Virus record (IMG/VR): IMGVR_UViG_3300042502_001066
DNA: 64,000 nt
Direction: 5' to 3' (one strand)
Source of the DNA: an uncultured virus (IMG/VR IMGVR_UViG_3300042502_001066)
Taxonomy: Duplodnaviria > Heunggongvirae > Uroviricota > Caudoviricetes
Of this stretch, positions 31,208 through 64,000 are shown piece after piece. The notes beneath the pieces are model-generated. The model saw only the letters and a program-made list of their open reading frames with translations. It did not search any database and had not been told where the DNA came from. How positions within the stretch are numbered: the first letter of the stretch is position 1; every line of letters begins with the position of its first letter. The position numbers and the translations under genes are program-made.

Positions 31208-31278
31208 TGTGTATATTTTTTTGTAAAGATACTATATTCTATGGATTTATGAAATAAATATTGTTATTTTTTTTAGGT

Positions 31279-33885: not shown

Positions 33886-33886
33886 T

Positions 33887-35447: not shown

Positions 35448-35459
35448 TAGGGATAAATA

Positions 35460-37196: not shown

Positions 37197-37212
37197 TTTT
37201 AAAATTTAAAAA

Positions 37213-38010
37213 ATGTATAATAATAAAAAAATATCTTTAACAATAATGTCTTGTAAAAGACTACATTTCTTAAGACGTGTTATTAAAGCATTTTCTGTTT
37301 TTTGTTTAGATACGGAAATAATAGATGATATAATTTTCTTTGACGACTCATCTAATAATGACGATAAAAGAGAAATGGAAAAATTACTAAATGATTATTT
37401 TCCAAATACAAACAAAATCATCACTCACTTTTACCCGAATTCATTTCCTGATAATTTTAGACACGCTAGAGTATTAAATTCTTGGAGAGATAAATTAATC
37501 GAGACTGATTCTGATTATTGTTTTTTATTGGAGGATGATTATCTTTTTATGGATTTATTCAAGATTACTGAAGCGATAGATGCGTTAAGTTTAAATAATG
37601 GTTATGCTTATTTTGGATATTCTCAGAGTTTTAAAAAATTTCCTGATAATATCAAACCTGTTGAATATGAAAATTATTGGGAGTGGTACTATGACCCAAA
37701 TTTACCATTGAATTGTAATTTATTTTATGATGATGTTTCGGCATTACAAGTAGTTCAAACACCTGACTTATGGTTAACATATATTAACTGGCCAAGTTTT
37801 TCATTAAGACCTGGTGTTCATAATGTCAAAAAACTATTGTCAATAGGGGAATTTTCAACAACATTCAATCCAAATGAAACTAAAGTTGAATTGGAATTTG
37901 CTGAAAGGTGGTCAAAAAAATATAAATCTTTATGTCATAAAAGATTCCACATTATCAATTTAGGTTTTGAACCATCAACAAGTGCTTATACAATAAATAA
38001 ATCAGAATAA
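37213..38010 (+). CDS. GT-A fold glycosyltransferase
   Basis: SCKR, FFDDSS, LLEDDY. Confidence 0.65.
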   Translation: MYNNKKISLTIMSCKRLHFLRRVIKAFSVFCLDTEIIDDIIFFDDSSNNDDKREMEKLLNDYFPNTNKIITHFYPNSFPDNFRHARVLNSWRDKLIETDSDYCFLLEDDYLFMDLFKITEAIDALSLNNGYAYFGYSQSFKKFPDNIKPVEYENYWEWYYDPNLPLNCNLFYDDVSALQVVQTPDLWLTYINWPSFSLRPGVHNVKKLLSIGEFSTTFNPNETKVELEFAERWSKKYKSLCHKRFHIINLGFEPSTSAYTINKSE

Positions 38011-38014
38011 TAAT

Positions 38015-39610
38015 ATGAAGTTTAATTTAATTAGATTGGAAGAAAAACGATTAATTACAGAATCTGTTTGTGAAATACATTATAGTGTTGAAAATCCAAT
38101 CAGTAATGAAAGTACTATAAAATTAACTATACTAGACCCATTTTTTAATATCGAATACATACCAGGTTCGGACACTGTTACAATTCCAAATAATATTAAT
38201 TTTTGGACTCGATTTAGTGTTGATGAAATTGATAATAATGAAAAACCTAATTTAAAATTTGGTGTTAGAATTAAAGTTGAAGATTTAAGTACTAATCAAA
38301 TAATATATGATGAGGTAATTAAGACTCACCATAAATCTTTTGAAATGCGTAATCATTCTTTATCTAATCCTGAATATCTTAAAAGAGCTTGGATTATAGG
38401 GGATTCAAACGCTTGGGCTAGTTTTGGCGATACTAATAATAAATTTGATAGGGTAGGGAGACATGTACCTATAAGGGTTAGTCAGACTTCATTAAGTTTA
38501 AATCGATTTGTTAATGGTGACTTCTTAGGGTTACTTGATTCTCTTCCGATACAAGAAAAAGATGTTTTAGTGTTCTATTTGGGTGAGATAGATTTCAGAT
38601 ACACAATTCATAAACATTGTGAAAACAAGAACATTACTTTAAAAGAAGCTTGTTTAGAGTTGATGGATAGTTACTTTAATTCAATTTTAAAAATTAAAGA
38701 AATTTATAATAATCGTATTGTTATATTGTCACCTAATCCACCGATGAGAGATGGATTTTTATATGAATATATATTAGGAACTGAAGATGATAGAAAACTT
38801 TGTTTTAAATTATTCGATACATATTGGAAAAATAAAATTGGTTTTATTGAATATTTGGATTGGACTAAAGACTATACACTACCTGATGGATTAGTTGACA
38901 CATCTAAACTATGTAATAATAATCACCATATTCGTTATTACGATTCAATAGTGAATTTATTATCTAAACAACTTTCTAAATCAACAAAAACAAATATTAT
39001 AAAAACTAATGAACCAAAAGAGTTAGTGGATTATTGTTTGGATTTTGATTTGATGGAAAAATGTATTTTCATGCAGGTGTATGAAGAAATATTAACATTA
39101 TCCTATTGGCTAGGAGGGTTTAAACCTCATAATATATTAGAAATTGGGACAATGGGTAGTACCTTTTGGTTGATGTCAAAACTATCAACGGGTAAGAAAG
39201 TTTCAGTAGATATTGAACCAAGACAATCAATTATACATCATTTTATGCACGGAGAAGATTGGAAATTCTTCCAAGGGGACTCACATACTAAAGATATGTT
39301 TGAACAAGTAAAAGATTTTTGTCCAAAATACGATTTTATTTTTATTGATGGTGACCACACATATGATGGTGTTAAACATGATTTTGAATTATATAAAAAT
39401 TTATTATCACCACGTGGTGTGATTGGTTTCCACGACATTGACCCTAACCATATATTCGCCGATAGTTACGCCGGTCAGGTTTATAAATTTTGGCAAGATT
39501 TAGATGAAGGTACAAAAATTAATTTAGTATGTACTAAGTCATCTGGTAATGTTAAATTAAATGGTCAACACTCACAAGGGTTTGGTGGTATTGGATTATG
39601 GAGACCGTAA
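38015..39610 (+). CDS. SGNH-like domain fused to class I SAM methyltransferase
   Basis: IIGDSN...GEIDFR; ILEIGT...FIDGDHTY...FHDI. Confidence 0.7.
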   Translation: MKFNLIRLEEKRLITESVCEIHYSVENPISNESTIKLTILDPFFNIEYIPGSDTVTIPNNINFWTRFSVDEIDNNEKPNLKFGVRIKVEDLSTNQIIYDEVIKTHHKSFEMRNHSLSNPEYLKRAWIIGDSNAWASFGDTNNKFDRVGRHVPIRVSQTSLSLNRFVNGDFLGLLDSLPIQEKDVLVFYLGEIDFRYTIHKHCENKNITLKEACLELMDSYFNSILKIKEIYNNRIVILSPNPPMRDGFLYEYILGTEDDRKLCFKLFDTYWKNKIGFIEYLDWTKDYTLPDGLVDTSKLCNNNHHIRYYDSIVNLLSKQLSKSTKTNIIKTNEPKELVDYCLDFDLMEKCIFMQVYEEILTLSYWLGGFKPHNILEIGTMGSTFWLMSKLSTGKKVSVDIEPRQSIIHHFMHGEDWKFFQGDSHTKDMFEQVKDFCPKYDFIFIDGDHTYDGVKHDFELYKNLLSPRGVIGFHDIDPNHIFADSYAGQVYKFWQDLDEGTKINLVCTKSSGNVKLNGQHSQGFGGIGLWRP

Positions 39611-40338
39611 AAAATCATATGAATTATAAGATTAAATTAGTTCATTTACAGACAACACAGAATGAACATAGAGAAAAAGAATCAAGAAAATCTGTACAAC
39701 AGGTAATCCCTTATGGTATTGAATATGTTTTACATCAGAACGAGTTATATGCTTCTTTACCTCCAATTCATACTAGTGTTAGACCACATAATGTTAGAAT
39801 GGGTAAGTATGAAGATGTTAATGACCCTGAATATGGTAACGCTTTAACACCGGCTCACTACGGATGTTTTGAAGCATTTAAAATAGGTATCTTATCTGAA
39901 TTTGATAATGATTTAGATTTCTTAATTGTCTGTGAAGGTGATTGTATTATAGAAGTTCCGATTGAGGAGTTTATAGATAAAGTTAATCAGGTGTGTAGTA
40001 TTGTTAATCAGGAAGACATTTCTTATTTTTCATTCGGTGATACTAAAACCTTAGATTATGGATGGCACCAATCTGATGTGGTTAGGGAAATACCAAATCA
40101 AGATTTATTGTTTATTACAAATAAAATAATTGGTTTACAATGTATAATGTTTTCAAAGAAATCACGTAAAACAATAATGAACCAGTTGAGAACACATAGA
40201 TGGGATTGTGCTGACACGTTTTTCAATATAATATGTTCAGAACAAAGATTGACCATGGGTGTTTTAAATAAAAGAATAACAACTCAAGTAGATGGTGAGT
40301 CATTTATAGATAAAGAATATAAAGTTTTTACAAAATAG
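39598..40338 (+). CDS. GT25-like glycosyltransferase
   Basis: HYGCFEAF...LIVCEGD pattern. Confidence 0.55.
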   Translation: METVKNHMNYKIKLVHLQTTQNEHREKESRKSVQQVIPYGIEYVLHQNELYASLPPIHTSVRPHNVRMGKYEDVNDPEYGNALTPAHYGCFEAFKIGILSEFDNDLDFLIVCEGDCIIEVPIEEFIDKVNQVCSIVNQEDISYFSFGDTKTLDYGWHQSDVVREIPNQDLLFITNKIIGLQCIMFSKKSRKTIMNQLRTHRWDCADTFFNIICSEQRLTMGVLNKRITTQVDGESFIDKEYKVFTK

Positions 40339-40339
40339 T

Positions 40340-41026
40340 ATGAAAAATTTAAAAATCCTATTTAATTTTGCAACAAGGAGTAGACCTAAAAAATTTATTA
40401 ATGTAATTAATGAGTTATGTGATAAATTATACGATTATGAAAATTGTATAATTTTAGTCTCAATAGATAATGACGATGATACAATGAATTCAGATGAAAT
40501 TAAAAATTTTATTTTAAATCATAGATATTCAAGTATTATAAAAGTATTTTCATCGGACTCTAAAGGTAAAATAATTGCCACAAATTATAATATTAATAAA
40601 ATATCTGATTGGGATATTGTTATGAATATTGCTGACGATTTTGAATTTCCTAAAGAAAATATTGATTTACATATTAGAAAATATATGTTAGAGTTTTACC
40701 CTGATTTAGACGGTATTTTACATTTTCCTGATGGTATACAAAATGAATTAATTTGTACACATCCTGTTATGGGTAGAAAATATTATGAAAGATTTGGTTA
40801 TATATTTAACCCTATTTATTATTCTTTTTACTGTGATGATGAACTTACTCAAGTCGGTAAAATTTTAAATAAAATAACATATATTGGTGATTTTATTTAT
40901 TTACATAAACATTATTATTTTAACCCAGGGTCAATGGATGAACTAGATATTGAGAATGAAAAATATGCTTCAACAGATAGGGAAACTTATGATAAAAGAA
41001 AAAATGAAAATTTTAGTTTAATATGA
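40340..41026 (+). CDS. GT-A fold glycosyltransferase
   Basis: ATRSRP, IDNDD, IADDF, FYCDDE. Confidence 0.65.
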   Translation: MKNLKILFNFATRSRPKKFINVINELCDKLYDYENCIILVSIDNDDDTMNSDEIKNFILNHRYSSIIKVFSSDSKGKIIATNYNINKISDWDIVMNIADDFEFPKENIDLHIRKYMLEFYPDLDGILHFPDGIQNELICTHPVMGRKYYERFGYIFNPIYYSFYCDDELTQVGKILNKITYIGDFIYLHKHYYFNPGSMDELDIENEKYASTDRETYDKRKNENFSLI

Positions 41027-43155
41027 GAATTACACAAGTAACACCTGGAATTATTACAATACCACCAAATGGTTGGGGGGCGGTTGAAAAAGTAATATGG
41101 GAATATTACAACAATATTAAAGAGTTAGGACACCAATGTGATATAAAATATCTTAATGAGGTAGATACTAACAGTAGTGATATTATTCATATTCATATGG
41201 CTAATTTGGCTATTGAAGCGGCAAATAGAGGTATCCCTTATATCTTCTCATTACATGACCACCACGTTGTTTATTACGGTAAGGAGTCATCTAACTACCA
41301 ACAAAATTTAGAAGCAATTAAAAGGTCTGTGATATCTTTCACCCACGCTGAGTTTTTAGTTGATTACTTTGATGAGACAGATAAGTTGTTCTATCTATCA
41401 CATGGTGTTAATACTGATTTCTTTAAAAATGACAATCCAAAAAGAACTGAACATAAATTATTGTGTTTAGCAAACAATGGTATTGGTGGTGATTCAACCT
41501 ACGATAGAAAAGGATTTAGATATGCGATTGAATCCGCAATCAAATTAGATTTACCTATTACTGTTGCTGGTCCTGAAAATAACAGAATATTCTTTGAACA
41601 TCACAATGACTTATTAAATTACGATAAGTTAACTTTAATGTTCTCAAATCCAAATGAAGAACAAATATTAGAACTATATAAAAGTCATTCAATCTTCTTA
41701 CATCCATCTATGTTGGAAGCCGGACATCCAAACCTAACATTATTAGAGGCGGTATCTTGTAATATACCCGTTGTTGGTACTTATTTGGGTTCACAAACAA
41801 TAGAAGGAATGGTTATAGTTGAAAGAGATGTAAATCAAATAGTTAGTGGTATTAAACAAGTAATTGACAATTATGATTTATATTTAAATAACACTGAATT
41901 AGATAGACAAAAATACGATTGGAGTGTTATTACTAAAAGGATGGTTAGAATTTATGAAGACCTTATTAACAGTAGAAAAAATTTGAATAGTCTTGAGACA
42001 AAACAAAGATTTGATAAAGTATTTGAAAATACTGAAATAAAACCAAAAGAGATGGTTGAAAAAATTGAAGTAATTAATCATTATATCAACGGAGCGTTAG
42101 TTGAAATTAAGGGTAATAGTGATAAACGATATTTGGTTGAGTTTTGGAATCAGAGTGGTGACTGTGAATATCGTGAGGAGATTGGTTGTAATATGTGGGT
42201 CAGATTAAGTAAGAAATATTTTGATGAGTATACTTTAAAAATTTACTCTGAAGGTAATTTAATTAGTGAAAAGAAATATAATGCGGAGAACAAACGAGTA
42301 TATATCGCTTTAGATTCTAAATCTTTAGGTGATACATTCGCTTGGGCACCTTACGCTGAGGAATTTAGAAAAAAACATAATTGTAAGGTTATCTGTTCAA
42401 CATTCTTTAACGATTTGTTTGTAAAACAATATCCTGAAATACAATTTGTCCCCCCTGGCAGTACGGTTGATAACCTATACGCAATGTATGAGATAGGTTG
42501 GTTTTACGATGGTGATAATGTTAAAACTGATAGACACCCAAGTGACTTTAAATTAGGTCCATTACAAAAAACCGCGACAGACATTTTAGGTTTGGAATAT
42601 AAGGAAGTAAAACCTTTAATTAAAAACCCTAACAAGTTAAAGAAAAAACGAGTTGGATTGGGTATTCATTCAACCGCTCAATCCAAATATTGGAATAACC
42701 CAAAAGGATGGCAAGAAATTACTGATTATCTTATATCTCTTGGTTATGAGGTAATCATTTATTCAAAAGAGGAAGATGGGTATATGGGTAATTTTTATCC
42801 TAAAGGTGCTAAACAAAACCCTTCTGGCTCAATCTATAAACTGATTGAAGAGTTATCTACCTGTGAATTCTTTATTGGAATATCAAGTGGTATTTCATGG
42901 GTTACTTGGGCTTTGGATATCCCAACAGTATTGATTTCAGGATTTACTGAAGAGTTTAACGAACCTTATGATAATGTTTATAAAGTTAGTGCACCTGAAA
43001 ATACTTGTAGAGGATGTGCAAATAAGTTTAGATTAGACCCAGGTGATTGGAATTGGTGTCCAATAAATAAGGGGAATGATAAAATGTTTGAATGTTCTAA
43101 AAAGATAACATCTGAGATGGTAAAAGATAAAATTATTGAATTACTTGGTAAGTAA
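41023..43155 (+). CDS. GT4 domain fused to autotransporter O-heptosyltransferase (TibC/Aah-like, GT9-related)
   Basis: PPNGWGAVEK, HPSMLE..LLEA; SKKYF barrel, SLGDT.AW.PY, STAQSKYWNN, FFIGISSGISW, CRGC...WCP...FEC iron-finger cysteines. Confidence 0.85.
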   Translation: MRITQVTPGIITIPPNGWGAVEKVIWEYYNNIKELGHQCDIKYLNEVDTNSSDIIHIHMANLAIEAANRGIPYIFSLHDHHVVYYGKESSNYQQNLEAIKRSVISFTHAEFLVDYFDETDKLFYLSHGVNTDFFKNDNPKRTEHKLLCLANNGIGGDSTYDRKGFRYAIESAIKLDLPITVAGPENNRIFFEHHNDLLNYDKLTLMFSNPNEEQILELYKSHSIFLHPSMLEAGHPNLTLLEAVSCNIPVVGTYLGSQTIEGMVIVERDVNQIVSGIKQVIDNYDLYLNNTELDRQKYDWSVITKRMVRIYEDLINSRKNLNSLETKQRFDKVFENTEIKPKEMVEKIEVINHYINGALVEIKGNSDKRYLVEFWNQSGDCEYREEIGCNMWVRLSKKYFDEYTLKIYSEGNLISEKKYNAENKRVYIALDSKSLGDTFAWAPYAEEFRKKHNCKVICSTFFNDLFVKQYPEIQFVPPGSTVDNLYAMYEIGWFYDGDNVKTDRHPSDFKLGPLQKTATDILGLEYKEVKPLIKNPNKLKKKRVGLGIHSTAQSKYWNNPKGWQEITDYLISLGYEVIIYSKEEDGYMGNFYPKGAKQNPSGSIYKLIEELSTCEFFIGISSGISWVTWALDIPTVLISGFTEEFNEPYDNVYKVSAPENTCRGCANKFRLDPGDWNWCPINKGNDKMFECSKKITSEMVKDKIIELLGK

Positions 43156-44090: not shown

Positions 44091-44933
44091 ATGGCATTAT
44101 CATATATTGGAGGTAAGAGTAAGATAGGTAAGTGGATTGTCCCATTCTACCCAACAGATATGGAAACGTATGTTGAAACATTTGGTGGTATGTTTTGGTG
44201 TTTCTTCAACATGGATTTAAAACAATATCCTAATTTAAAAAGAGTTGTTTATAACGACTTTAATCCTTTGAACTATAATTTGTTTATGTGTCTTCAGGAC
44301 CCTGAGACTCTGTTATCCTCAATTAATAGTATCCCATGTCAACAACAAGGTGTGGAAGTAACACCACCAGTTTATAAAGAACAATTTAATGAGTTTCAAA
44401 AGGAAATTTTCTCTCATGGTTTAACAATTAACTATCCTGATTATGGTGTTGCTGCGAAGTATGCTTATGTTCTGACACAGGTTTTCAGTGGTTCAAAACC
44501 TGAGACATCAAGTTTTATTGATTTAAAGGGAAAGTATAAGTCAAAATATCTTACCTTTAGAGATAAATTATCTAAACCTGAATGGGTGGAACATTTCAAT
44601 AGAATATCAGAGTTTAGATTGGGTGATTTTGAAGATGTTATTAAAGAGTTTGATAGTCCAACAACATACTTTTATGTTGACCCGCCGTACTGGAAAACCG
44701 AGAACTATTACTCAAACCACGATTTTGATAGGGAAGACCACGAAAGATTGGCTGATTGTTTGAAAGGTATTAAAGGTAAGTTTAGTTTATCTTACTACGA
44801 TTTTCAGTTGTTGAATGAGTGGTTCCCAAAGGAGGAATACAAATGGGAGAAGAAAGAATTTGCTAAAGCCGCGGCAGCAAAGAAAGGAAAGGTACAAAAT
44901 ATGGGGGAAGAACTATTAATTATGAATTATTGA
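44091..44933 (+). CDS. Dam-like (D12-class) DNA adenine methyltransferase
   Basis: YIGGKS, YVETFGG, YNDFN, YVDPPY, ELLIMNY. Confidence 0.88.
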   Translation: MALSYIGGKSKIGKWIVPFYPTDMETYVETFGGMFWCFFNMDLKQYPNLKRVVYNDFNPLNYNLFMCLQDPETLLSSINSIPCQQQGVEVTPPVYKEQFNEFQKEIFSHGLTINYPDYGVAAKYAYVLTQVFSGSKPETSSFIDLKGKYKSKYLTFRDKLSKPEWVEHFNRISEFRLGDFEDVIKEFDSPTTYFYVDPPYWKTENYYSNHDFDREDHERLADCLKGIKGKFSLSYYDFQLLNEWFPKEEYKWEKKEFAKAAAAKKGKVQNMGEELLIMNY

Positions 44934-54757: not shown

Positions 54758-54769
54758 TATATTTGTTAT

Positions 54770-54931
54770 ATGGGATTCAACAAAAAAATAATAGGAGAAG
54801 AACAAATCAAAAGTTTAGAAAAAGATTTAACTATTATTAATCATTATCTCAAAGCCGATTCAATCATTTTCACAAATAACGACGTTGCCAAAAAATTTAA
54901 AGAGTATGAGAAACAATATAGACCCGTATGA
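54770..54931 (+). CDS. Small hypothetical protein, 53 aa (MGFNKK...)
   Basis: Hand translation; TATATTTG 4 nt upstream; missed by track. Confidence 0.6.
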   Translation: MGFNKKIIGEEQIKSLEKDLTIINHYLKADSIIFTNNDVAKKFKEYEKQYRPV

Positions 54932-55106
54932 AGTTCTGTTAAGAAAACTTGAAAAACCAGTTCATATCAATTACATTTGTGATTATATCCTACGAGTTGG
55001 AATCGACGAAACAAGAAAACGAATTGAAAAACTTGTAAGTGAGGGTATACTTGAAGAAAGTAAATATGGAAAAGAATATTATGTCAGAACAAAAAGAAAT
55101 GGTTAA
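54906..55106 (+). CDS. Small winged-helix-like protein
   Basis: ETRKRIEKLVSEGILEE..YG..YYV pattern; ATG start 54906. Confidence 0.45.
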   Translation: MRNNIDPYEVLLRKLEKPVHINYICDYILRVGIDETRKRIEKLVSEGILEESKYGKEYYVRTKRNG

Positions 55107-55308
55107 TCACCCATCACACTATGGTGGTGAAGATAATCCATATGAAGCTATCAAAGTCATTGATGCTTGGGGTTTAGATAAAGATTTTTATTTGGGTAAT
55201 GCGGTCAAATACCTATCACGTGCTGGTAAGAAAGACAATGTGGTTCAGGACCTGAAGAAAGCTATATGGTATATTGAAAAAAAGATAGAAAAATTACAGA
55301 ATGATTGA
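55081..55308 (+). CDS. DUF3310-family protein
   Basis: VNHPSHY, EAIKVI, GNAVKY..RAGKK, DLKKAIWY. Confidence 0.85.
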   Translation: MSEQKEMVNHPSHYGGEDNPYEAIKVIDAWGLDKDFYLGNAVKYLSRAGKKDNVVQDLKKAIWYIEKKIEKLQND

Positions 55309-56158
55309 GAATTATATTAATAAGGTAATCAATGGTGACACCATTGATGTAATGAAAGAGATGCCTGAAGGTTGGGTTGATTTAGTTGTAACGTCACCAC
55401 CATATAATGTGGGTATCCAATACGACACACATAATGATGAGATTGTTATGGATGAATATTGGGATTGGTCTGAAAAATGGTTAACGGAGGCTTATCGTTT
55501 ACTTAAAGACGATGGAAGAATGGCTATTAACATACCATATGAGGTAAATGTACAAGCTCGTGGTGGTAGAGTATTCTTTGCCTCTGAGATATATCAGGTG
55601 ATGAAAAAAGTTGGGTTTAAGTTCTACGGTATTGTTGACCTTGAAGAAGACTCGCCACATAGAAGTAAGACAACTGCTTGGGGTTCTTGGATGAGTCCAT
55701 CGGCACCTTACATTTATAACCCAAAAGAGTGTGTTATTCTTGCTTATAAGAAAGTTCATATTAAGAAAATTAAAGGTGAACCACAATGGAAAGGTGAACC
55801 TTATCTAACTGAAGAGGGAAAGAACAAAGTTGCTTATTCTGAACAAGATAAGAAAGAGTTCATGGAATTGGTGTTTGGACAATGGAAATACTTTGCTGAC
55901 ACTCGTTCATTAACAAAGGCAACGTTCTCGATGGATATTCCCGAAAAGGCAATTAAGATATTATCATATAGAAATGATATTGTTTTAGACCCTTTCAATG
56001 GTTCAGGAACCAGTTGTGTGGCAGCAGTTGTTCATGACAGAAGATGGGTTGGTATTGAATTGAGTGAAAACTATTGTGAAATTGCTAAACAACGAATACA
56101 AAGTTTTGTTGACCAAAAGAACCAACAGAAGTTACAATTTGAAAACGGAGTCCAATAA
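55301..56158 (+). CDS. Beta-class DNA methyltransferase (N4C-type SPPY)
   Basis: TSPPYN, DPFNGSGTS, GIELS. Confidence 0.9.
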   Translation: MIENYINKVINGDTIDVMKEMPEGWVDLVVTSPPYNVGIQYDTHNDEIVMDEYWDWSEKWLTEAYRLLKDDGRMAINIPYEVNVQARGGRVFFASEIYQVMKKVGFKFYGIVDLEEDSPHRSKTTAWGSWMSPSAPYIYNPKECVILAYKKVHIKKIKGEPQWKGEPYLTEEGKNKVAYSEQDKKEFMELVFGQWKYFADTRSLTKATFSMDIPEKAIKILSYRNDIVLDPFNGSGTSCVAAVVHDRRWVGIELSENYCEIAKQRIQSFVDQKNQQKLQFENGVQ

Positions 56159-56171
56159 ACTCCGTTTTTTT
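56142..56171 (+). terminator. Intrinsic terminator
   Basis: AAAACGGAG...CTCCGTTTTTTT. Confidence 0.7.
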
Positions 56172-56203
56172 ATTTATTTGTATATTTATAATTAAATGTT
56201 ATT

Positions 56204-56575
56204 ATGAAAAATTCGGAAGTTGTTAAATTTTTACTAGAAACACAAACTCAGTTTAGAATACTACACTGGCAAACAAAATCATTCTCAAGACATGAGGCTT
56301 ATGGGCGTATTTATGATTCACTTGATGATTTGATTGATAAGTTTGTTGAAGTTTGTATGGGTAAACACGGAAGACCTAGTTTTACAGGCGGTTATACATT
56401 AGCGGGTAGAGATATTGAAGAACTTGAGTTAACTGAGTTTATTAATTTAGTATGTGAATACTTGGTGGGATTGTCTGAAAGCTACGACCCAAAGATGGAC
56501 TCAGATTTATTAAACATTAGAGACGAAATGTTAGCGGAAATTAACCAGTTGAAATACTTGTTAACTTTAAAATAG
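56204..56575 (+). CDS. Ferritin/Dps-like protein (DUF5856-like)
   Basis: LHWQT.S...HEA....YD.L..LID.FVE...G, NIRDEM....N..KYLL. Confidence 0.75.
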   Translation: MKNSEVVKFLLETQTQFRILHWQTKSFSRHEAYGRIYDSLDDLIDKFVEVCMGKHGRPSFTGGYTLAGRDIEELELTEFINLVCEYLVGLSESYDPKMDSDLLNIRDEMLAEINQLKYLLTLK

Positions 56576-56597
56576 AGGTATATTACTTTTTTACTTT

Positions 56598-56630
56598 AAA
56601 AGGTTCATCGTAATGATGAACTTTTTTTTT
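56598..56630 (+). terminator. Intrinsic terminator
   Basis: AAAAGGTTCATC-GTAAT-GATGAACTTTT plus T-run. Confidence 0.75.
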
Positions 56631-56649
56631 GTTATAATATTTATTATTA

Positions 56650-58056
56650 ATGAAAAAGATAATTTCTGAAGGTGGTATTAGAAACATAAAAGAACTTTCT
56701 AATAGATACAGCAAAGCGAAGATATACTTTCACCAAGATTTAGATGGTGTTGCAACTGCATTAGCAATGAAAAAGTATTTGGAAGACAATGGAATTAAAG
56801 TTGTTGATGTTGAAGTAATCCAATACGGAGATAAAGAATTTGCGGTTAAGAAGGCGGATGCTGAAGGTGAAATTATGCCAGTTCTTGTTGACTTTGCTCA
56901 CGGAAAACCAATGTTCGTGGTTCATACCGACCACCACGACAGACAAGCCGGAGCTGACGAAACTAAGTCAACTCAGTTCAGAGGGGCTCGTTCAAATGTT
57001 GAAACTCTTTCACAGATTGTCCCGGCTTCTGAAATTTTCACACCAGAAGATGTTGCGACAATATCTATGGTTGATAGTGCTGATTACGCTTCCAAAAACA
57101 TTACACCTGAAATGGTGATGAATTATGTTTATGGTACATCAAAAGAAAAGAGTGCTAAAGAAAATAGAATGTTATTAGGTTTGGTTACCAACAAATTATT
57201 GTTGGCTTTCAAAAGTAAACCAGGATTTTTAGAGACATTAGTATTAGATTGTAAACCTTCACTTCTTTCAATCTTCAATAAGATTAAGGAATTAATGAAG
57301 ACAAACAGATATGCTGATATATCTTCATTAGAGAAAAACAAAGAAGATTACGTTCAGACAATGAAAGGACATAAGAATGTTCAGGTTAAAGATAATATCA
57401 TCGTTCAGTATGGTGGTGGAAGTATGATGAGACCTGGTTCATATGATAGATATACCCCATTTAGAAACAACCCTGATGCTGACTTCCTTGTTATTGCTTG
57501 GCCACTTGGTTTATTACAGGCATCATGTAACCCTTTTAAAAAAGAAAGAGAACTTAAAGGTGTTAACTTGGGAGAGATTGCTCAAGAAGTATTGGGACAT
57601 TGGGAATCACAATTAAAAGAAAAACAAGTCCCATTATCAACAATCAAGTGGGTTTCTGAAACTGCTGCGAAAGAAGAATCAGTTGGATTTACCTTTAAGG
57701 ATTTTGCTGCAATATACGGAGACAAATACTTGGATGAGAAAGATGGTGTTAAAACACTTATGGATATTAAATCTTTGATGGAAAAGAAATCAACTGAACT
57801 GACTGAAGAAGAATGGAGTGTTTTAGATGGTGTTACCGTTCCTGTATGGGAAGTTATCCAAGCCAATTCAGGTGGACACAAGTGTATTACAAATATATCA
57901 GGATTAAACTATATTGGAAGAAGTAAGAGACCACCACAAGGTAAGTACAAGTATGAGTCTGAAAAAGAAGATTCACCTTATATTAAATTCTTAAAGATGT
58001 TACAGAATAGATTTGTTAGTGTCCTACAAGAAAAAATTGAGTCTTCAAAGAATTGA
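56650..58056 (+). CDS. DHH-family phosphoesterase
   Basis: HQDLDG, VDF, TDHH, SGGH motifs. Confidence 0.7.
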   Translation: MKKIISEGGIRNIKELSNRYSKAKIYFHQDLDGVATALAMKKYLEDNGIKVVDVEVIQYGDKEFAVKKADAEGEIMPVLVDFAHGKPMFVVHTDHHDRQAGADETKSTQFRGARSNVETLSQIVPASEIFTPEDVATISMVDSADYASKNITPEMVMNYVYGTSKEKSAKENRMLLGLVTNKLLLAFKSKPGFLETLVLDCKPSLLSIFNKIKELMKTNRYADISSLEKNKEDYVQTMKGHKNVQVKDNIIVQYGGGSMMRPGSYDRYTPFRNNPDADFLVIAWPLGLLQASCNPFKKERELKGVNLGEIAQEVLGHWESQLKEKQVPLSTIKWVSETAAKEESVGFTFKDFAAIYGDKYLDEKDGVKTLMDIKSLMEKKSTELTEEEWSVLDGVTVPVWEVIQANSGGHKCITNISGLNYIGRSKRPPQGKYKYESEKEDSPYIKFLKMLQNRFVSVLQEKIESSKN

Positions 58057-58061
58057 GTTAT

Positions 58062-58553
58062 TCACAATTTTTTATAGAAAAAATCCTTAAACCCATTTGT
58101 TTGGTGTACTTTGTACCCATGTTTTTTGTTTAACTCTTGTGATGCCTCATTTTTTAAACTGACTATTGAAGTTGCGTAATCAAAACCCCTAGATTTGGCA
58201 ATTTCATGACATTCATTTTTTAGAATGTCGGCATATCCTCTGTTTCTATGATTTTCATCCACAAATAAACTATGTAAATAAACGGAGTTTTTACCATTAA
58301 AAAAATTATCGTCACACATCTCTCTACAATATTCCGTCTTTTTATTATTAAATCTATTAATATCAGGGTCCAACCCAATTGATGAATCATAGTCAAGTAC
58401 ATTAGTACTACCAATCATATTTTTGTCCTTATCGTAAAGACATATTCTTAAACCTGGACTTACACTCAAATCGCCCTCAAAAATAATTTCAGGTTGGTTA
58501 ATCGACTCAAGAACCAATTTTTTTAAAATAGAAATTTGAGAAAGTCTTTTCAT
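58062..58553 (-). CDS. GNAT-family acetyltransferase
   Basis: YLHSLFVDENHRNRGYA motif A; NEAS..L.KKHGY motif B. Confidence 0.8.
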   Translation of the reverse strand: MKRLSQISILKKLVLESINQPEIIFEGDLSVSPGLRICLYDKDKNMIGSTNVLDYDSSIGLDPDINRFNNKKTEYCREMCDDNFFNGKNSVYLHSLFVDENHRNRGYADILKNECHEIAKSRGFDYATSIVSLKNEASQELNKKHGYKVHQTNGFKDFFYKKL

Positions 58554-58589
58554 TAGTTAGTTTTCACCTATTTATAAATATAAGTATAT

Positions 58590-58623
58590 ATGAAACAAAG
58601 TGCGGGAATAATTGTAAAAGTAA
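58590..58623 (+). repeat. 34-bp copy of the Nudix gene 5' end
   Basis: ATGAAACAAAGTGCGGGAATAATTGTAAAAGTAA vs 59004-59037, one mismatch. Confidence 0.9.
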
Positions 58624-58629
58624 GAAAGT

Positions 58630-58983
58630 TTAAACTTTAATTAAAAACTTACAGATATCACCTTCTTCAATATTTTCATCTTGACAACGACCACCTTCTA
58701 TTTCTAAAACATAGGTTCCAGAACCTTCGTAACTTTGACAAAGTTCATCTTCACATGGTTCACAGTTGTGGTGTATTTTTGTTATCTTATAGTTTTCATC
58801 TATAAAGATAATATCCAAAGGAATAATACAGTTCATCATCCAAAAACTGTGTTCACCTTTACCCATTAAAAATAGCATACCATCAAATCCGATAAATTCA
58901 CGACCTATCATCCCTCTTTGAGTTTCAGATTTGGTTTTACAAACTTTGACTTTAAAAATTTCTTTATTTATTATTACAAACAT
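58630..58983 (-). CDS. DUF192-family protein
   Basis: RGM, GMLF, FWMMNC.IPLDIIFID, YVLEI.GG. Confidence 0.85.
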   Translation of the reverse strand: MFVIINKEIFKVKVCKTKSETQRGMIGREFIGFDGMLFLMGKGEHSFWMMNCIIPLDIIFIDENYKITKIHHNCEPCEDELCQSYEGSGTYVLEIEGGRCQDENIEEGDICKFLIKV

Positions 58984-59003
58984 AGTTATATATAAATAGT
59001 ATT

Positions 59004-59414
59004 ATGAAACAAAGTGCAGGAATAATTGTAAAAGTAAATAACAGATGTTTAGTTTGTAAGAGAGCTGTCGAAATTAATGAACCATCAAAATGGGCAATAC
59101 CTATGGGTGGTATAGAAGAAGGTGAAGACCCAAAGGATGCTGCGTATAGAGAGTTCTATGAAGAGATGGGTGTTAGTGTTGATGGTGTCATTAAACCTTT
59201 ATCTAGAATTAATCGTTATAATAAGTTAGGACAGGTAAAAACAATTTTACATGTCTTTATTTTTAAAACCGATACTGAAATCATTCCGGATTTAGATGGA
59301 GCAGCGGATGGTTTTGAACACACAGAGTGCGCTTATATGACTTTAGAAGAAATTAAAGGACTTAATATGTCATCAGGTATTAAGGAAGTTTTAACTGATG
59401 TGTTAAACTTTTGA
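59004..59414 (+). CDS. Nudix hydrolase
   Basis: GGIEEGEDPKDAAYREFYEEMG Nudix box. Confidence 0.88.
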   Translation: MKQSAGIIVKVNNRCLVCKRAVEINEPSKWAIPMGGIEEGEDPKDAAYREFYEEMGVSVDGVIKPLSRINRYNKLGQVKTILHVFIFKTDTEIIPDLDGAADGFEHTECAYMTLEEIKGLNMSSGIKEVLTDVLNF

Positions 59415-59432
59415 TTTTTTTGATATATTTAT

Positions 59433-59463
59433 TTGACACTACGGAATATTCGCCGTAAGTTTG
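59433..59463 (+). promoter_or_regulatory. Promoter P1 of the giant RNA locus
   Basis: TTGACA-N17-TAAGTTTG. Confidence 0.8.
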
Positions 59464-59534
59464 TAAAAGATTTAACACTCATAGGGGATGAAAGATACTC
59501 GGTAGTTAAATCAAAAAAAAAGTTCACAAACTAC

Positions 59535-59565
59535 TTGACAGAAAGAAAAAAAAGTCGTAAGTTTG
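59535..59565 (+). promoter_or_regulatory. Promoter P2 of the giant RNA locus
   Basis: TTGACA-N17-TAAGTTTG; shares 20 identical bp (CGTAAGTTTGTAAAAGATTT) with P1. Confidence 0.8.
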
Positions 59566-59649
59566 TAAAAGATTTGAGATGAAGAGGTTGTAAAGATTCC
59601 TACTTCGGTAGGTTGTAAAGATTCCTCCTTCTTCTCTTTTTGAAAAAGC

Positions 59650-59661
59650 GTTCTTTGAAAC
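59650..59661 (+). promoter_or_regulatory. boxA-like antitermination element
   Basis: GTTCTTTGAAAC just after a leader hairpin, as in rrn leaders. Confidence 0.55.
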
Positions 59662-59669
59662 AAAAAGAT

Positions 59670-60557
59670 TATCCGTTCAGGAAACACAAAGTGTCGGTGA
59701 TATTATCCACCGAGTAAATGGCAGAAAGTCCGCAGCTTGAGTGTAACTGATAAACGATAATGGGCCGTGTATGGTCCTTAAATAAACTACGAAAGTAGGA
59801 TAAAGTGGTCTCCCCTGTGTTGAGGAGACTGCGGTTTGAAACCCCGTAAGGGGAATTGAACTCAAGTACACAAGTGGGATATCACCACACCGTAAGTACC
59901 GAGGATAACTTCGTAGGGAAAATGGTTGGGTGACTTGGGAAAGTAGATTCTCAAGTTGAGTTCGGAAGAACGATAAGAATAACCCATAGGAACTCTGTAA
60001 GAAATGTGACCATCCAGTTACACTATTGCGGGTCCCAATATGATAGAGGACTTAAAACCGAAAGGTAAGATGGAGAACGAGTGGTGTCGCTACTATCCCT
60101 AAGGAAGACCTACCAAGGTCTCTTTATGAAGTAATCTTGAAATATGGAGGTGGGGACACTTCACGGAGTAGTTTAGTATTCTGTCGCTCAAAAGGAGACA
60201 GAGCTTATGTTGGACCACTACTCTGACACATCTACAACACAACCCTAAAATTATTACAAAATAACAAAGGAAAAGTGTCCATCAGGTTTGAGTGAAAGGT
60301 GACTACATAGTAATGAGCCGTTCATTGCATACAGAGACCCCAAGTCAATGTGTATTGTTAAGAAAAACCTTTAGTCCCGCAAGGACGAACTGGGGTGGCA
60401 ACCTCGGAAAGAGTTAAGTACTGATAGAGTAATTCAAACCTCAAGGAGTGGTACACCTAAAATACCGTCACTAAGAAATACTACCCAAAAGGTGGTGGAT
60501 ACGAAGGGAAACAATAATCCTTCAAAAGTTTCTTAACATAAGCTGTAATCTCAGGCT
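59670..60557 (+). ncRNA. Large structured noncoding RNA, probably GOLLD-class (ends approximate)
   Basis: No credible ORF, GC-richer than flanks, many stems with GNRA loops (CTAC-GAAA-GTAG 59787, CCCC-GTAA-GGGG 59842, GTTC-GGAA-GAAC 59960, ACC-GAAA-GGT 60057), 3' TGTAATCTCAG hairpin, own promoters and terminator. Confidence 0.75.
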
Positions 60558-60567
60558 TTTCTAATCT

Positions 60568-60592
60568 GACCTGTCAATTGACGGGTTTTTTT
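60568..60592 (+). terminator. Intrinsic terminator of the giant RNA
   Basis: GACCTGTC-AATT-GACGGGTT plus T-run. Confidence 0.8.
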
Positions 60593-60613
60593 ATTTATAG
60601 ATACTTATAAACT

Positions 60614-60838
60614 ATGACAATATTAGAAAATCTTAAAGAGGTATTACCATCATGGGCGGTGGTAACACAAAAGGAACTACCATATAAGATGGAGTATGAG
60701 ATTAGACTTCAACCTACTTTGGATGAAGATGAACATTTTGCTTTAACACCAAAACTTAAAGAAGCTTGTCAGGGTAAGTTTATGGAAAGATACACTGTAG
60801 ATATTGGTGAACACTTTTATATTTATACAAAAAAGTAA
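60614..60838 (+). CDS. Hypothetical protein
   Basis: ORF with TATTTATA upstream. Confidence 0.55.
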   Translation: MTILENLKEVLPSWAVVTQKELPYKMEYEIRLQPTLDEDEHFALTPKLKEACQGKFMERYTVDIGEHFYIYTKK

Positions 60839-60840
60839 TC

Positions 60841-61026
60841 ATGATACCTAAAGAGATTAAAGAATTAGTTAACAAATACCCAAACAATTACGAGTTAGGT
60901 GAAGAAGTTAGAAAATATTATCACAAAAATAAACAGAAAGAAAATTTTAATTCTGGTGTTCTGTGGATTGGGGTTTTATTCTTTTTTATATTTGCTTCAC
61001 TCTTGACTTGGATTATAACCGTTTAA
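60841..61026 (+). CDS. Small protein with C-terminal TM helix
   Basis: YPNNYELGEEVR motif then hydrophobic tail. Confidence 0.55.
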   Translation: MIPKEIKELVNKYPNNYELGEEVRKYYHKNKQKENFNSGVLWIGVLFFFIFASLLTWIITV

Positions 61027-61066
61027 TTTCCTGACTTTAAACATATTTATAATAAAATTATAAATT

Positions 61067-61912
61067 ATGTTACTAAAAGTTGGGTCTAAAGGAGAAGACG
61101 TTAAACAACTCCAAGCAAAATTAGGATTAACTGCCGATGGTTCATTCGGTCCTAACACAGAGAAAAAAGTTAAAGAATGGCAAGCGGCTAACGGAATAAC
61201 CGCTGACGGAATCGTTGGGCCAGGAACTTGGTCTAAAATGTTCGGAGCGACAACTCAACCTGTTCAACCAGCACAAGTGGTTAAAGAAGATGTTGTTATT
61301 CCAACAAGTTCTGAGTTCAAATTACAAAATCTAAAAGGACATATTCCTGACGCAGTGATTGCTCAAATCCCTGAAACTGCTAAAAAATTCAATATCACTA
61401 ACCCATTAAGATTAGCTCATTTCTTGGCTCAGTGTGGACACGAGTCAGGTGGGTTTAAAGCTGTTTCTGAGAACCTTAACTATTCTGCTGACGGACTTAA
61501 GAAAATCTTTGGTAAGTATTTCCCTGGTAACTTAAACGAGTCATATGCTCGTCAACCTGAAAAGATTGCTTCACGTGTTTATGGAAGTAGAATGGGTAAT
61601 GGTGATGAGTCAACAGGTGAAGGTTTTAAATTCCGTGGAAGAGGATATATCCAGTTGACTGGTAAACAAAACTATACAAACTTCGCTAAGTTCATTGGTG
61701 AAGATACTGTGTCTAATCCTGATTTAGTTGCTACCAAATATCCTTTAGCCTCTGCGGCGTTCTTCTTTGATTCAAACAAACTTTGGTCAATCTGTGATAA
61801 GGGTTCTGATGTTGCAACTGTCACGGCAGTTACAAAACGAGTTAATGGCGGGGTTATAGGGCTCACTGACAGAATAAAACACTTCAACGAGTATTACAAC
61901 CTACTTAAATAA
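61067..61912 (+). CDS. Endolysin: peptidoglycan-binding domain + GH19 catalytic domain
   Basis: GSKGEDVKQLQ...ADGIVGPGT; AHFLAQCGHESG, FRGRGYIQLTG, TKRVNGG. Confidence 0.9.
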   Translation: MLLKVGSKGEDVKQLQAKLGLTADGSFGPNTEKKVKEWQAANGITADGIVGPGTWSKMFGATTQPVQPAQVVKEDVVIPTSSEFKLQNLKGHIPDAVIAQIPETAKKFNITNPLRLAHFLAQCGHESGGFKAVSENLNYSADGLKKIFGKYFPGNLNESYARQPEKIASRVYGSRMGNGDESTGEGFKFRGRGYIQLTGKQNYTNFAKFIGEDTVSNPDLVATKYPLASAAFFFDSNKLWSICDKGSDVATVTAVTKRVNGGVIGLTDRIKHFNEYYNLLK

Positions 61913-61915
61913 TCT

Positions 61916-61941
61916 AAGCCCCCTTGAAAAAGGGGGTTTTT
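61916..61941 (+). terminator. Intrinsic terminator
   Basis: AAGCCCCCTT-GAAA-AAGGGGGTTTTT. Confidence 0.8.
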
Positions 61942-62004
61942 GATTAATGTGTTGATTATGTAATTCAATTATTCTATTATTACCTAAACATAAAAAAACA
62001 AACT

Positions 62005-63057
62005 ATGAAAAAAATTAAATTATTTCTTTTAACCCTTTTCGCATTCATTGGAATGAGTGCATCATCACAAGTATTAACGTCTTTTAACGTTGATATAATT
62101 AACCTCGGAGGATGTCCATACACATTGTTCGGAAACTATTATGGAGGTGGTATTCAAGGTAGTATTACTTTAACACAACAACCTACAGGAAGTTATGTTG
62201 CAGTTGTACCAGCAATTGATAGTCTAAATGTTAGTATCTGTGCAATTTATACTTCACCATGTTTAGGTGAGACTTGTATAAATGAAACAATATATCTTGG
62301 GTCAGGACAAGGTGTTCAGACATTTACGATAGTACTTCAAAACCAAGACTCAGATTTTGATGGGTTCATGGATAACATTGACTGTAATCCATTTGACCCA
62401 TATATCTATCCAGGGGCACCTGAACTATGTTATGACGGTATTGATAACAACTGTGATGGTTTAATTGAGGCAATGCCGACAATTGATACTCTGTACTTTG
62501 TTCCTGATTCACTTGTATCTGAACCAAACACTATTTACGTGGTTTACCAAGGTTCAAATACTGTAGAATGGGAATGGTTTTTTGGAAATGGAGGAAATGG
62601 GACGAGTTCAAACGAACAATACCCAACCATTACATTCCCTACCTCAACGTTTACTTCACAAATGCTCCCGATTAACTTATACGCAATTTCCATTAATGGT
62701 TGTCAGGTTTATACTTCAATAAACTTTTCAATTGATAGTAATGGAGTTTGGACACCGGGTGGAATTTTAAATGATTATACCTTAAACGTTGTTCCTGAAT
62801 TTATAATTGGGGTTGAAGAAACAATGACTAATAACGTTAAAGTTTGGCCAAACCCTGTGTTAGGTATTGTTAATATTAACACACCATCAAATAGTGGAAC
62901 GTTAAGAGTTATGTCTATCGACGGAAGATGTGTTCACCAAGAAAAATATTTTACTAACAACATTCAGTTTGATTCTGAAACATTAAGTAATGGAACTTAT
63001 GTTATTACTCTTACTGACGATAGTGGTAAGTTTTACACAACAAGAATTATTAAATAA
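62005..63057 (+). CDS. Secreted protein with MopE-like Cys/Asp motif, PKD-like domain and T9SS type A C-terminal sorting domain
   Basis: Signal peptide ending SS-Q; DC...PGAPELC.DGIDNNCDG; VWPNP...DGR...L.NGTYVI...RIIK. Confidence 0.8.
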   Translation: MKKIKLFLLTLFAFIGMSASSQVLTSFNVDIINLGGCPYTLFGNYYGGGIQGSITLTQQPTGSYVAVVPAIDSLNVSICAIYTSPCLGETCINETIYLGSGQGVQTFTIVLQNQDSDFDGFMDNIDCNPFDPYIYPGAPELCYDGIDNNCDGLIEAMPTIDTLYFVPDSLVSEPNTIYVVYQGSNTVEWEWFFGNGGNGTSSNEQYPTITFPTSTFTSQMLPINLYAISINGCQVYTSINFSIDSNGVWTPGGILNDYTLNVVPEFIIGVEETMTNNVKVWPNPVLGIVNINTPSNSGTLRVMSIDGRCVHQEKYFTNNIQFDSETLSNGTYVITLTDDSGKFYTTRIIK

Positions 63058-63060
63058 TAA

Positions 63061-63084
63061 AATCCCCCTGAAACATGGGGGATT
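63061..63084. terminator. Terminator-like hairpin
   Basis: AATCCCCC-TGAAACAT-GGGGGATT. Confidence 0.6.
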
Positions 63085-63102
63085 ATAATTTTTATATCGG
63101 AT

Positions 63103-63366
63103 ATGAAAATTAAAATGGGTGTGGTTGAAAAACACCAATACGAAGGTGTTAGAGAATTTGAGGAAATTGACTTGGACAAATTTCCGATTATTAAACAATT
63201 TATGGATGTTAATCCAGATTGCACCGAACAGGAATTACTTTCTTATATTAAGAAAATCAAAGACGAAGAGTTCAAAAAATTCATAACAGAATTGAGTTGG
63301 AACTCTATCATTAAAGAAAACTTCAGTAAGAACAAAACTGAATTTAAAATAGAAATAGAGAAATGA
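63103..63366 (+). CDS. Hypothetical protein
   Basis: ORF coupled (ATGA) to rfbB. Confidence 0.55.
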   Translation: MKIKMGVVEKHQYEGVREFEEIDLDKFPIIKQFMDVNPDCTEQELLSYIKKIKDEEFKKFITELSWNSIIKENFSKNKTEFKIEIEK

Positions 63367-64000
63367 ATGTATTAATAACTGGTGGATTAGGTTTTATTGG
63401 TTCTAATTTTTATAATACCTTTAAAAAGAAATATCCTGACTATAATTTAGTCATCCTTGATAGTGGGACATATGCAGCGGATGAAGATAACATTGATGAT
63501 GTTAGAAGCTCTAGAATAATCAAATTTAGTATTACTGAACGAGAAAGATTATTTAAGTTATTTGAAAATTACAAGTTTGACTCGGTAATACACTTCGCGG
63601 CTGAATCACATGTTGATAACTCAATATTAAATCCGATGGAGTTTGTTCAAACAAATATTATTGGAACGTTGAATCTGTTGGACGCTTCAATTAAGTATGG
63701 TATTAAATTATTCTATCACATATCAACTGATGAGGTTTTTGGACATTTAGGTGCGGTGGGTTCTTTTGATGAGAAGACTGCTTATGACCCAAGAAGTCCT
63801 TACTCAGCATCAAAGGCATCATCCGACCACTTTGTTAGAGCTTACTACCACACTTATGGATTACCTGTTGTGATATCAAATTGTTCAAATAACTTTGGAC
63901 CAAACCAACATCAAGAAAAATTAATTCCAACAATCATTAAAAGTATCCTTAATGGGAAACCAATACCAGTTTATGGTAACGGACAGAATGTGAGGGACTG
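63363..64000 (+). CDS. rfbB: dTDP-glucose 4,6-dehydratase, truncated by window end
   Basis: Hand translation: ITGGLGFIGSN, HFAAESHVDNSI, ISTDEVFG, SPYSASKA, SNCSNNFGP. Confidence 0.9.
   Translation, partial: MNVLITGGLGFIGSNFYNTFKKKYPDYNLVILDSGTYAADEDNIDDVRSSRIIKFSITERERLFKLFENYKFDSVIHFAAESHVDNSILNPMEFVQTNIIGTLNLLDASIKYGIKLFYHISTDEVFGHLGAVGSFDEKTAYDPRSPYSASKASSDHFVRAYYHTYGLPVVISNCSNNFGPNQHQEKLIPTIIKSILNGKPIPVYGNGQNVRD

Follow-up and report, generated by a model that had tools for sequence, protein, structure and literature searches.

What does a phage encode in a stretch of almost one kilobase that holds no long open reading frame (ORF)? The question arises in a 64,000-nucleotide stretch of DNA from an uncultured virus of the Caudoviricetes (IMG/VR record IMGVR_UViG_3300042502_001066), here called the window, where an earlier note, made from the letters alone, had read positions 59670-60592 as the gene of a giant, GOLLD-like structured RNA in a Bacteroidota phage. 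We conclude, with a probability of about 95%, that a freshwater jumbo phage of ~290 kb with a Bacteroidota host carries a full-length gene for GOLLD RNA at this locus. The RNA is a well-formed GOLLD of the env-38 structural type, and the stretch is a fresh example of an already known RNA family and does not define another one. The first report of GOLLD dates from 2009 (according to a reference list), and it has been known to form a large RNA-only cage since 2025 (PMC12286853).

The whole window was scanned against Rfam 15 at the gathering score, and positions 59000-61000 were scanned permissively (E <= 1). GOLLD (RF02032) is the sole gathering-score match in the window, located at 60164-60557 on the plus strand; it scores 322 bits where 150 would suffice (E = 2e-91). 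The match spans model positions 1-416 of 416 and is not truncated. In the cmscan alignment, all annotated RF02032 helices are paired, among them the long-range helix (a pseudoknot) and the GUAAUCUCAG hairpin at the 3' end. The closest record and seven relatives likewise pass RF02032, with 278-322 bits. ROOL (RF03087), OLE, HEARO, group I and group II introns and RNase P RNA gave no match, either within 59000-61000 at E <= 1 or in the window at the gathering score. The only other Rfam family within 59000-61000 at E <= 1 is a chance-level S15 match (16.8 bits, E = 0.71), which lies outside the region. The GOLLD label of the earlier note is therefore correct, and in the comparison that it had proposed with GOLLD, ROOL, OLE, HEARO, introns and RNase P, GOLLD alone matched.

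The RF02032 model represents only the conserved 3' domain of GOLLD, and it covers 394 of ~1000 nt at this locus. The 5' half thus lies outside the reach of Rfam, which would be in line with a new giant structured RNA class merely resembling GOLLD. We consider the probability of such a class to be next to negligible: the 3' half matches the whole of RF02032 at more than twice the gathering score, while the 5' half is contiguous with the 3' half in 122 full-length homologs and is homologous, by eye, along its length to the 5' region of env-38. The new giant-RNA class kept as a fallback in the earlier note is unneeded.

The homologs come from pattern scans of IMG/VR, which located 74 loci with the 5'-domain motif and at least 119 with the 3'-domain motif. 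A profile of 59645-60560 run over the fetched loci gave the 122 full-length matches, 79 of them distinct. Clustering at 96% identity reduced these to 56, which together with the window form the covariation alignment of 57 sequences. RNAalifold predicts 192 pairs on this alignment, 130 of them with a compensatory change. The helices of the 3' domain are recovered too, likewise with covariation. The 5' domain (59762-60162) contains 98 pairs in 18 helices, with standard pairs in 97.8% of the cells, and this fraction falls to 35-42% once the 3' partners are slid by 1-3 columns. Changes on both sides occur in 67 of the 98 pairs, compared with 19-28 when slid, and each helix has at least one compensatory pair. 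None of 500 shuffles attains any of the observed 5'-domain measures. The 5'-domain structure came from the same alignment on which it was scored, which favours it to some extent; the margin is very large.

The same alignment bears on whether the stretch codes for small proteins and not for an RNA. Short ORFs do exist on the minus strand, at 59677-59871 (64 amino acids, aa) and 60099-60242 (47 aa). However, all ORFs within 59415-60613 are of 64 aa or fewer, variation in the 57 homologs is concentrated in paired columns with the pairing kept, and the Rfam match accounts for the conservation. A protein-coding role is hardly credible on these grounds.

As to the locus itself, the absence of long ORFs is confirmed: no interval free of ORFs of 90 aa or more is longer, anywhere in the window, than 59415-61066 (the runner-up is 54758-55300). 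The claim that the stretch is richer in GC than its flanks is also borne out, with a GC content of 0.41-0.44 across 59600-60500 versus 0.28-0.33 in neighbouring bins; values of 0.39-0.42 are also reached in two other parts of the profiled 56000-64000. The minimum free energy of 59645-60560 is -254 kcal/mol, versus -229.6 +/- 6.0 kcal/mol for 20 shuffles (z = -4.07). All six perfect stems named in the earlier note occur at the places it gave, and five of them belong to helices of one consensus or the other, that of Rfam or the one backed by covariation; the exception is TCGGTG/CACCGA. GNRA tetraloops of the GAAA and GGAA types were found as noted, the 3' hairpin motif UGUAAUCUCAG lies inside the terminal hairpin, and the reading of separate promoters and a terminator agrees with two promoter-like repeats upstream and a terminator-like hairpin downstream. 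The bounds of 59670-60592 hold for the region and fail for its start, as 59670 falls within the leader. The conserved core extends over 59760-60557 (798 nt), the distance from promoter to terminator is ~1,020 nt, and the transcription unit is likely to occupy about 59570-60595. The features are collected in Table 1.

Table 1. Features of the GOLLD locus and its surroundings in the window. Bridges are named after the env-38 contacts; fractions are counts over the 57 aligned sequences.
Feature	Position	Strand	Evidence or remark
NUDIX hydrolase gene	59004-59414	+	PF00293, 66.9 bits; conserved upstream neighbour
Promoter-like repeat D1, copy 1 (reference)	59430-59473	+	TTGACA, 17 nt, TAAGTTTG; 44-nt direct repeat
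Proximal promoter-like repeat D1, copy 2	59532-59575	+	CTTGACA, 17 nt, TAAGTTTG; A tract before; 77% identical to copy 1
5' leader	59576-59759	+	~190 nt; outside env-38 construct, whose start is equivalent to 59760 (by eye)
Leader repeat/hairpin insertion	59585-59631		~50 nt, 22-nt tandem repeat; replaces short hairpin of relatives
Leader element GTTCTTTGA	59650-59658		GTTCTTT 57/57; following G 54/57
Leader element GATTATCC	59668-59675		followed by variable hairpin 59694-59713
Stem TCGGTG/CACCGA	59694/59708		in variable leader hairpin
GOLLD 5' domain ("cap" of solved cage)	59760-60163	+	covariation; by-eye homology to env-38 residues 1-420
GNRA loops	59791; 60060; 59964		GAAA; GAAA; GGAA
Stem GTCTCC/GGAGAC	59808/59824		
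Stem GACCT/AGGTC	60107/60116		
GOLLD 3' domain ("ring")	60164-60557	+	RF02032, 322 bits; RNAalifold covariation
Stem GAGTAGT/ACTACTC	60166/60217		
Stem TCTGTC/GACAGA	60180/60197		
A-rich linker	about 60226-60268		ends just before GG 60269-60270 of bridge B7
Stem TAAGAAA/TTTCTTA	60472/60529		
Terminal GUAAUCUCAG hairpin	60541-60557		end of 3' domain
Motif UGUAAUCUCAG	60544		
Bridge B1, GAAA loop	59791-59794		57/57
Bridge B2, GAGG with partner C	59901-59904; 59910		57/57; 57/57
Bridge B3, GGAA loop	59964-59967		57/57
Bridge B4, GGGA loop with AUCC	60153-60156; 60012-60015		GGGA 55/57; UCC 56/57
Bridge B5, GUGGUG with CCAA	60081-60086; 60113-60116		57/57; 57/57
Bridge B6, CAAAA	60189-60193		57/57
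Bridge B7, GG with CC (linker-to-loop kissing contact)	60269-60270; 60340-60341		Watson-Crick 57/57
Bridge B8, GC (self-complementary)	60379-60380		GC 54, CG 3
Bridge B9, GGCA loop	near 60397-60400		GC 55/57
Bridge B10, AAAA	60487-60490		57/57
Intrinsic terminator	60568-60594	+	hairpin 60568-60587, 8-pair stem, 4-nt loop, then T run
Downstream genes	60614-61912	+	74-aa ORF, 61-aa ORF (C-terminal hydrophobic segment), endolysin
Endolysin	61067-61912	+	PG_binding_1 and GH19; phrog_181 at 2.5e-68
Gene of predicted T9SS-sorted secreted protein	62005-63057	+	TIGR04183, 43.9 bits (cut-off 23); PF18962, 43.2 bits (gathering 27)

The env-38 GOLLD is the reference for the three-dimensional structure. 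It was solved by cryo-electron microscopy as a D7 14-mer of an 833-nt construct (Kretsch et al. 2025, PMC12286853), and its entry is given as 9MEE in a review (PMC12990946). Its two regions, 5' (residues 1-420) and 3' (residues 421-833), form distinct domains in space (PMC12286853). We compared the window with env-38 by eye, using Supplemental Table 4 of Kretsch et al. for the construct and Supplemental Table 2 for the contacts, and counted residue frequencies over the 57 sequences. By eye, residues matching all ten inter-subunit bridges (B1-B10) are present in the window. At B7, the contact is formed by GG:CC in 40 sequences, GC:GC in 15 and UC:GA in 2, and no shuffle reaches the observed covariation score. 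The env-38 RNA has a fourth combination, GA:UC, which differs from that of the window in a compensatory way. B8 alternates between GC and CG, a behaviour that has been cited as evidence for a symmetric intermolecular kissing loop (PMC12286853).

When words were sampled from 59400-60620, fourteen lake-water DNA runs contained 85-93% of them and six runs of freshwater RNA libraries 38-57%. Compared over 58900-61400, RNA-library contigs lie on 59725-60544 in four of four freshwater runs from four studies, and several X15 RNA-library pieces have 0 differences from the window. On the flanks, no RNA-library contig lies over 58900-59655 and almost none past 60580 (at low depth, in X18 only); these are contigs, from which neither transcript ends nor a silence of the neighbouring genes can be inferred. 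A single X15 contig stops at about 59672-59680, where letters resembling an adapter follow, and this hints weakly at the end of a fragment.

These data also speak to the idea that the locus is a decaying, non-functional remnant of a GOLLD. Such a remnant would be consistent with the lack of family-typical tRNA neighbours, and the doubled promoter and the leader insertion are readable as disorder. On the other hand, the model match is full-length without truncation, compensatory substitutions occur among the relatives, and contigs with an identity of only 27-60% in the aligned upstream flanks still share 90-100% in the GOLLD. The occurrence of the region in the contigs of four RNA libraries and in the 14 lake DNA runs points in the same direction. 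We hold decay to be very improbable, and regard the locus as an intact GOLLD gene.

The GOLLD homologs sit in IMG/VR viral contigs, and the closest record is a 46-kb fragment with a CheckV completeness of 16%. Relatives with this type of GOLLD have 85,652 bp (29%), 110,526 bp (38%), 242,064 bp (82%) and 293,850 bp (100%, G006), with one GOLLD each. The CheckV fractions of the four partial records imply genomes of 288-295 kb, and we therefore place the genomes at ~290 kb. PHROGs matches in the window include tail fibre, primase, exonuclease, SbcCD, sigma factor, DNA methyltransferases, glycosyltransferases and endolysin. The best evidence on the host comes from the ORF at 62005-63057. The type IX secretion system (T9SS) is characteristic of Bacteroidota, and we assign the host to this phylum because this ORF carries a T9SS type A sorting domain. 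Its product looks like a protein built for export by the T9SS of the host. The PHROGs matches and this domain support the reading of the window as a Bacteroidota phage. The same ORF also has a MopE-like metal-binding motif (PF11617, 47.1 bits).

The elements flanking the core are conserved to different degrees. Copy 1 of the promoter-like repeat fits the motif TTTG-N18-22-TAnnTTTG, and the relatives keep a promoter module that consists of an A tract, (C/T)TTGACA, a spacer and TAAnTTTGTAAAAC. In 46 of the 57 sequences, TA..TTTG precedes the GTTCTTT anchor by no more than 75 nt; in five of the remaining 11, including the window, a leader insertion shifts it farther upstream (by eye). The module fits the Bacteroidota -33/-7 consensus, and it also reads as sigma-70-like (TTGACA-17-TAAGTT). 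The upstream module is a conserved promoter of uncertain type.

Within the leader, the segment from the promoter to GTTCTTTGA and the hairpin after GATTATCC vary among the relatives. The short 5' leader hairpin of the relatives has a compensatory stem, UCGGA...UCCGA versus UCUCA...UGAGA. RNAalifold predicts a pairing of GUUCUUUGA of the leader (59651-59658) with UCAAGGAG of the ring (60441-60448); both are near-invariant, and the putative pairing shows no compensatory change. A helix between UUAUCC (59670-59675) and GGAUAA (59799-59804) was dropped, as its 3' side is invariant and its 5' side varies uncompensated (by eye). We notice a further short element, ATAGGnnATGAAAGATACTCGGTA, which lies between both promoter copies (59483-59506) in the window and its close relatives. 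In L154, L098, L091, L097, L095 and L115, the same element is inside the leader, with the promoter on one side and GTTCTTTGA on the other, and takes the place of the short 5' hairpin. From these two placements we conclude that the leader has two alternative modules.

The earlier note saw no adjacent tRNA, and rightly so: ARAGORN finds no tRNA in the 64-kb window. Among 42 related 3-kb loci, there are 9 calls of tRNA-Met, 1 of tRNA-Gly and 2 of transfer-messenger RNA (tmRNA), and 30 loci have neither. Where measured (L007, L027), the tRNA-Met begins 16-22 nt past the GOLLD end, and in relatives with this arrangement the terminator region differs from that of the window. Adjacency to a tRNA is a non-defining property, and its absence is a lineage trait and no evidence against membership in the family.

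The distribution of tRNAs matters for a reading in which GOLLD is a cis-acting processing or storage scaffold for co-transcribed or embedded tRNAs, so that a linked tRNA is needed. The tRNA-Met in 9 of the 42 related loci, the flanking tRNAs of the huge-phage relatives, and the tRNAs embedded in the linker of some GOLLDs (PMC12990946) are in favour of this idea. In the window, however, the GOLLD has its own terminator, no tRNA lies within 64 kb, and the linker is short, A-rich and tRNA-free. The 30 of 42 related loci that lack a tRNA or tmRNA call in the fetched flanks also disagree with it. A self-terminated, tRNA-free GOLLD speaks against a dependence of the function on a cis-linked tRNA, and a strictly cis tRNA role for GOLLD is unlikely; it may still act together with tRNAs in trans.

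Two related contigs show other arrangements of RNA genes. In L036 (625-812 and 1091-2860), a group I intron match (61.3 bits) and three tRNA matches around the GOLLD form an RNA-gene island. L012 and L047 belong to one 58,992-bp IMG/VR contig with two GOLLDs 16.5 kb apart (322 and 312 bits), one of which adjoins a tmRNA gene (Rfam, 112.5 bits). This two-copy contig may be a strain-mixed assembly. A single GOLLD is present in the relative with an identical GOLLD (G002, 86 kb) and in the complete relative G006.

Superimposing the close relatives on the window over 59740-60580 reveals that one domain can be close to the window while the other is not. In successive 40-nt steps, L057 differs from the window at 0-1 positions over 59740-60180, and then at 8, 6, 5, 2, 3, 1, 3, 6, 3 and 13. 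L043 has the 3' pattern of L057 together with a different 5' domain, and L021 and L067 have another common 3' pattern. In the comparison with these four, the mismatch density shifts sharply near 60180, which is the boundary between the 5' and 3' domains. The pattern suggests that recombination at the domain boundary may swap domains between co-occurring phages. An exchange at this boundary is fitting because the two regions are separate domains in the solved structure (PMC12286853).

The genes around the GOLLD offer a limited view of its role. Of 72 loci with the 5' motif (duplicates included), 50 have the NUDIX hydrolase gene upstream of the GOLLD in the same orientation, and 46 have a DUF192 gene in the reverse orientation. 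With the 3' motif, the share of loci with NUDIX drops to 18 of 77, and no NUDIX gene was detected by tblastn near the GOLLDs of the huge phages LR745206 and LR756502, among the best 60 of 71 hit loci with 3-kb flanks. A functional partnership with NUDIX was dropped in view of these two results, which point to lineage synteny. The genes at 60614-61912 are a probable lysis cassette, in which the 61-aa ORF is a putative holin. GOLLD expression has been linked to cell lysis or phage production (PMC12286853, PMC6582537). The position of the GOLLD just upstream of the probable lysis cassette fits this link and proves nothing on timing.

Elsewhere in the window, a sugar-modification island (31261-43155 and 63363-63998) contains glycosyltransferases, an acetyltransferase and a dTDP-glucose 4,6-dehydratase. 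It also carries an FkbM-family methyltransferase fused to a glycosyltransferase-like region, and a TibC/Aah-type O-heptosyltransferase domain (TIGR04414, 258 bits, cut-off 200). The phage also encodes a sigma-70 family factor (21307-22107; phrog_351, 5e-51) and a DnaJ-like chaperone (29898-30818), the latter matching TIGR02349 with 240 bits, which is short of the cut-off of 377. Three DNA methyltransferase genes have strong PHROGs matches (15162-16112, 44091-44933 and 55301-56158), and 38015-39610 has a weaker one. An 817-aa ORF with beta-propeller (YVTN-type) repeats at 9870-12323 on the minus strand is opposed to the surrounding genes.

Taken as a whole, the locus would work in four steps. 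The gene would be transcribed independently, from the conserved promoter (duplicated in this phage) to the intrinsic terminator. The transcript would consist of a leader of ~190 nt and a core of ~800 nt, and the core would fold into the 5' cap (59760-60163) and the 3' ring (60164-60557). Kissing loops and A-minor contacts would then link ~12-14 copies into a hollow cage that contains no protein, judging from the homology to env-38. We infer cage assembly, stoichiometry, the exact transcript ends and the expression timing. By analogy with its env-38 homolog, this RNA most likely assembles into an RNA cage.

Several points weigh against this picture. The window lacks a tRNA although GOLLD genes often adjoin tRNAs. 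The bridges were mapped by eye, most bridge residues are invariant and give no covariation signal, and the conservation of loops is no proof of assembly. Which helices the 5' domain has is linked to 12-mer versus 14-mer assembly (PMC12990946), and the window has a shorter ACC-GAAA-GGU hairpin; the stoichiometry here is therefore unpredictable. The RNA evidence consists of assembled contigs, which are blind to ends, strand and level, and DNA carry-over is possible. The motif TTTG-N18-22-TAnnTTTG is not enriched in the window, with 9 occurrences versus 4.7 +/- 2.3 expected; as many as 9 were seen in 4 of 100 shuffles. For the shorter TAnnTTTG, the count in the window is 116 versus 110 +/- 10 expected, which is not significant. 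The promoter motif was dropped as host evidence, as it has no significant window-wide enrichment.

With regard to function, we tentatively propose that the cage may sequester or scaffold a translation-related macromolecule during infection, and we rate this as possible but well short of probable. A more doubtful proposal is that the GOLLD is an autonomous modular gene in this clade of lake jumbo phages, with its own promoter, terminator and leader and with the pairing of GUUCUUUGA and UCAAGGAG tying the 5' end to the ring, in which the exchange of cap and ring might tune the co-assembly of variants at co-infection.

The locus leaves the knowledge of the GOLLD family unchanged. It ties the env-38-type aquatic GOLLDs to a setting, namely ~290-kb jumbo phages of T9SS-bearing Bacteroidota that are abundant in lakes. 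It also supplies 79 distinct natural full-length variants on which structure and covariation can be studied. The window shows that a self-contained transcription unit free of tRNAs can make up a GOLLD gene, which argues against a strictly cis, tRNA-linked function. Many freshwater Bacteroidota are culturable, and they are a host group where a genetic test could be set up. Judged by title and abstract, the papers that mention both GOLLD and jumbo concern ICP1 satellites and a Kayvirus, and those that mention both GOLLD and Bacteroidetes are unrelated. The readable supplements of PMC12286853 contain no mention of Bacteroidota or Flavobacterium, jumbo, freshwater or lake.

Among the known systems, env-38 is collinear by eye with 59760-60557 and has the same type of 5' domain and the same 3' domain, and both RNAs come from aquatic metagenomes. 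The window differs from env-38 in a shorter hairpin (ACC-GAAA-GGU, 60057-60066) at env-38 residues ~296-325, and its variable stems carry other sequences. The leader of the window (~190 nt, with the invariant GUUCUUUGA) is absent from the env-38 construct. In addition, env-38 is described as adjoining a Met-tRNA, whereas the window has no adjacent tRNA. The published reverse primer of env-38 had 0 matches in a scan of viral contigs.

In the GenBank phage collection, two uncultured huge phages match and no others: LR745206 (634,780 bp) and LR756502 (642,428 bp). Their identity to the window is ~70% over 59762-60568 and ~70% over 59762-60005, respectively, and they pass RF02032 with 287 and 275 bits. 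LR745206 carries the invariant GTTCTTTGA. In contrast to the window, both have flanking tRNAs and lack the promoter module.

The GOLLD of Streptococcus agalactiae, described as a 12-mer of 700 nt (PMC12990946), belongs to the same family and shares the 3' domain and the two-domain logic of cap and ring. It lacks P9, P11a-c and P21b, and P7 and P10 are partly missing (PMC12990946). The window keeps two GC-containing loops that correspond to L21a and L21b and is thus nearer to env-38 than to the S. agalactiae GOLLD. The hosts also differ, Bacillota for S. agalactiae and Bacteroidota for the window. ROOL is likewise a large phage-associated RNA that forms an RNA-only cage and is often near tRNAs (PMC12286853, PMC5737381). 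Its cages are 8-mers or 6-mers. Its sequence and fold are unrelated to those of GOLLD.

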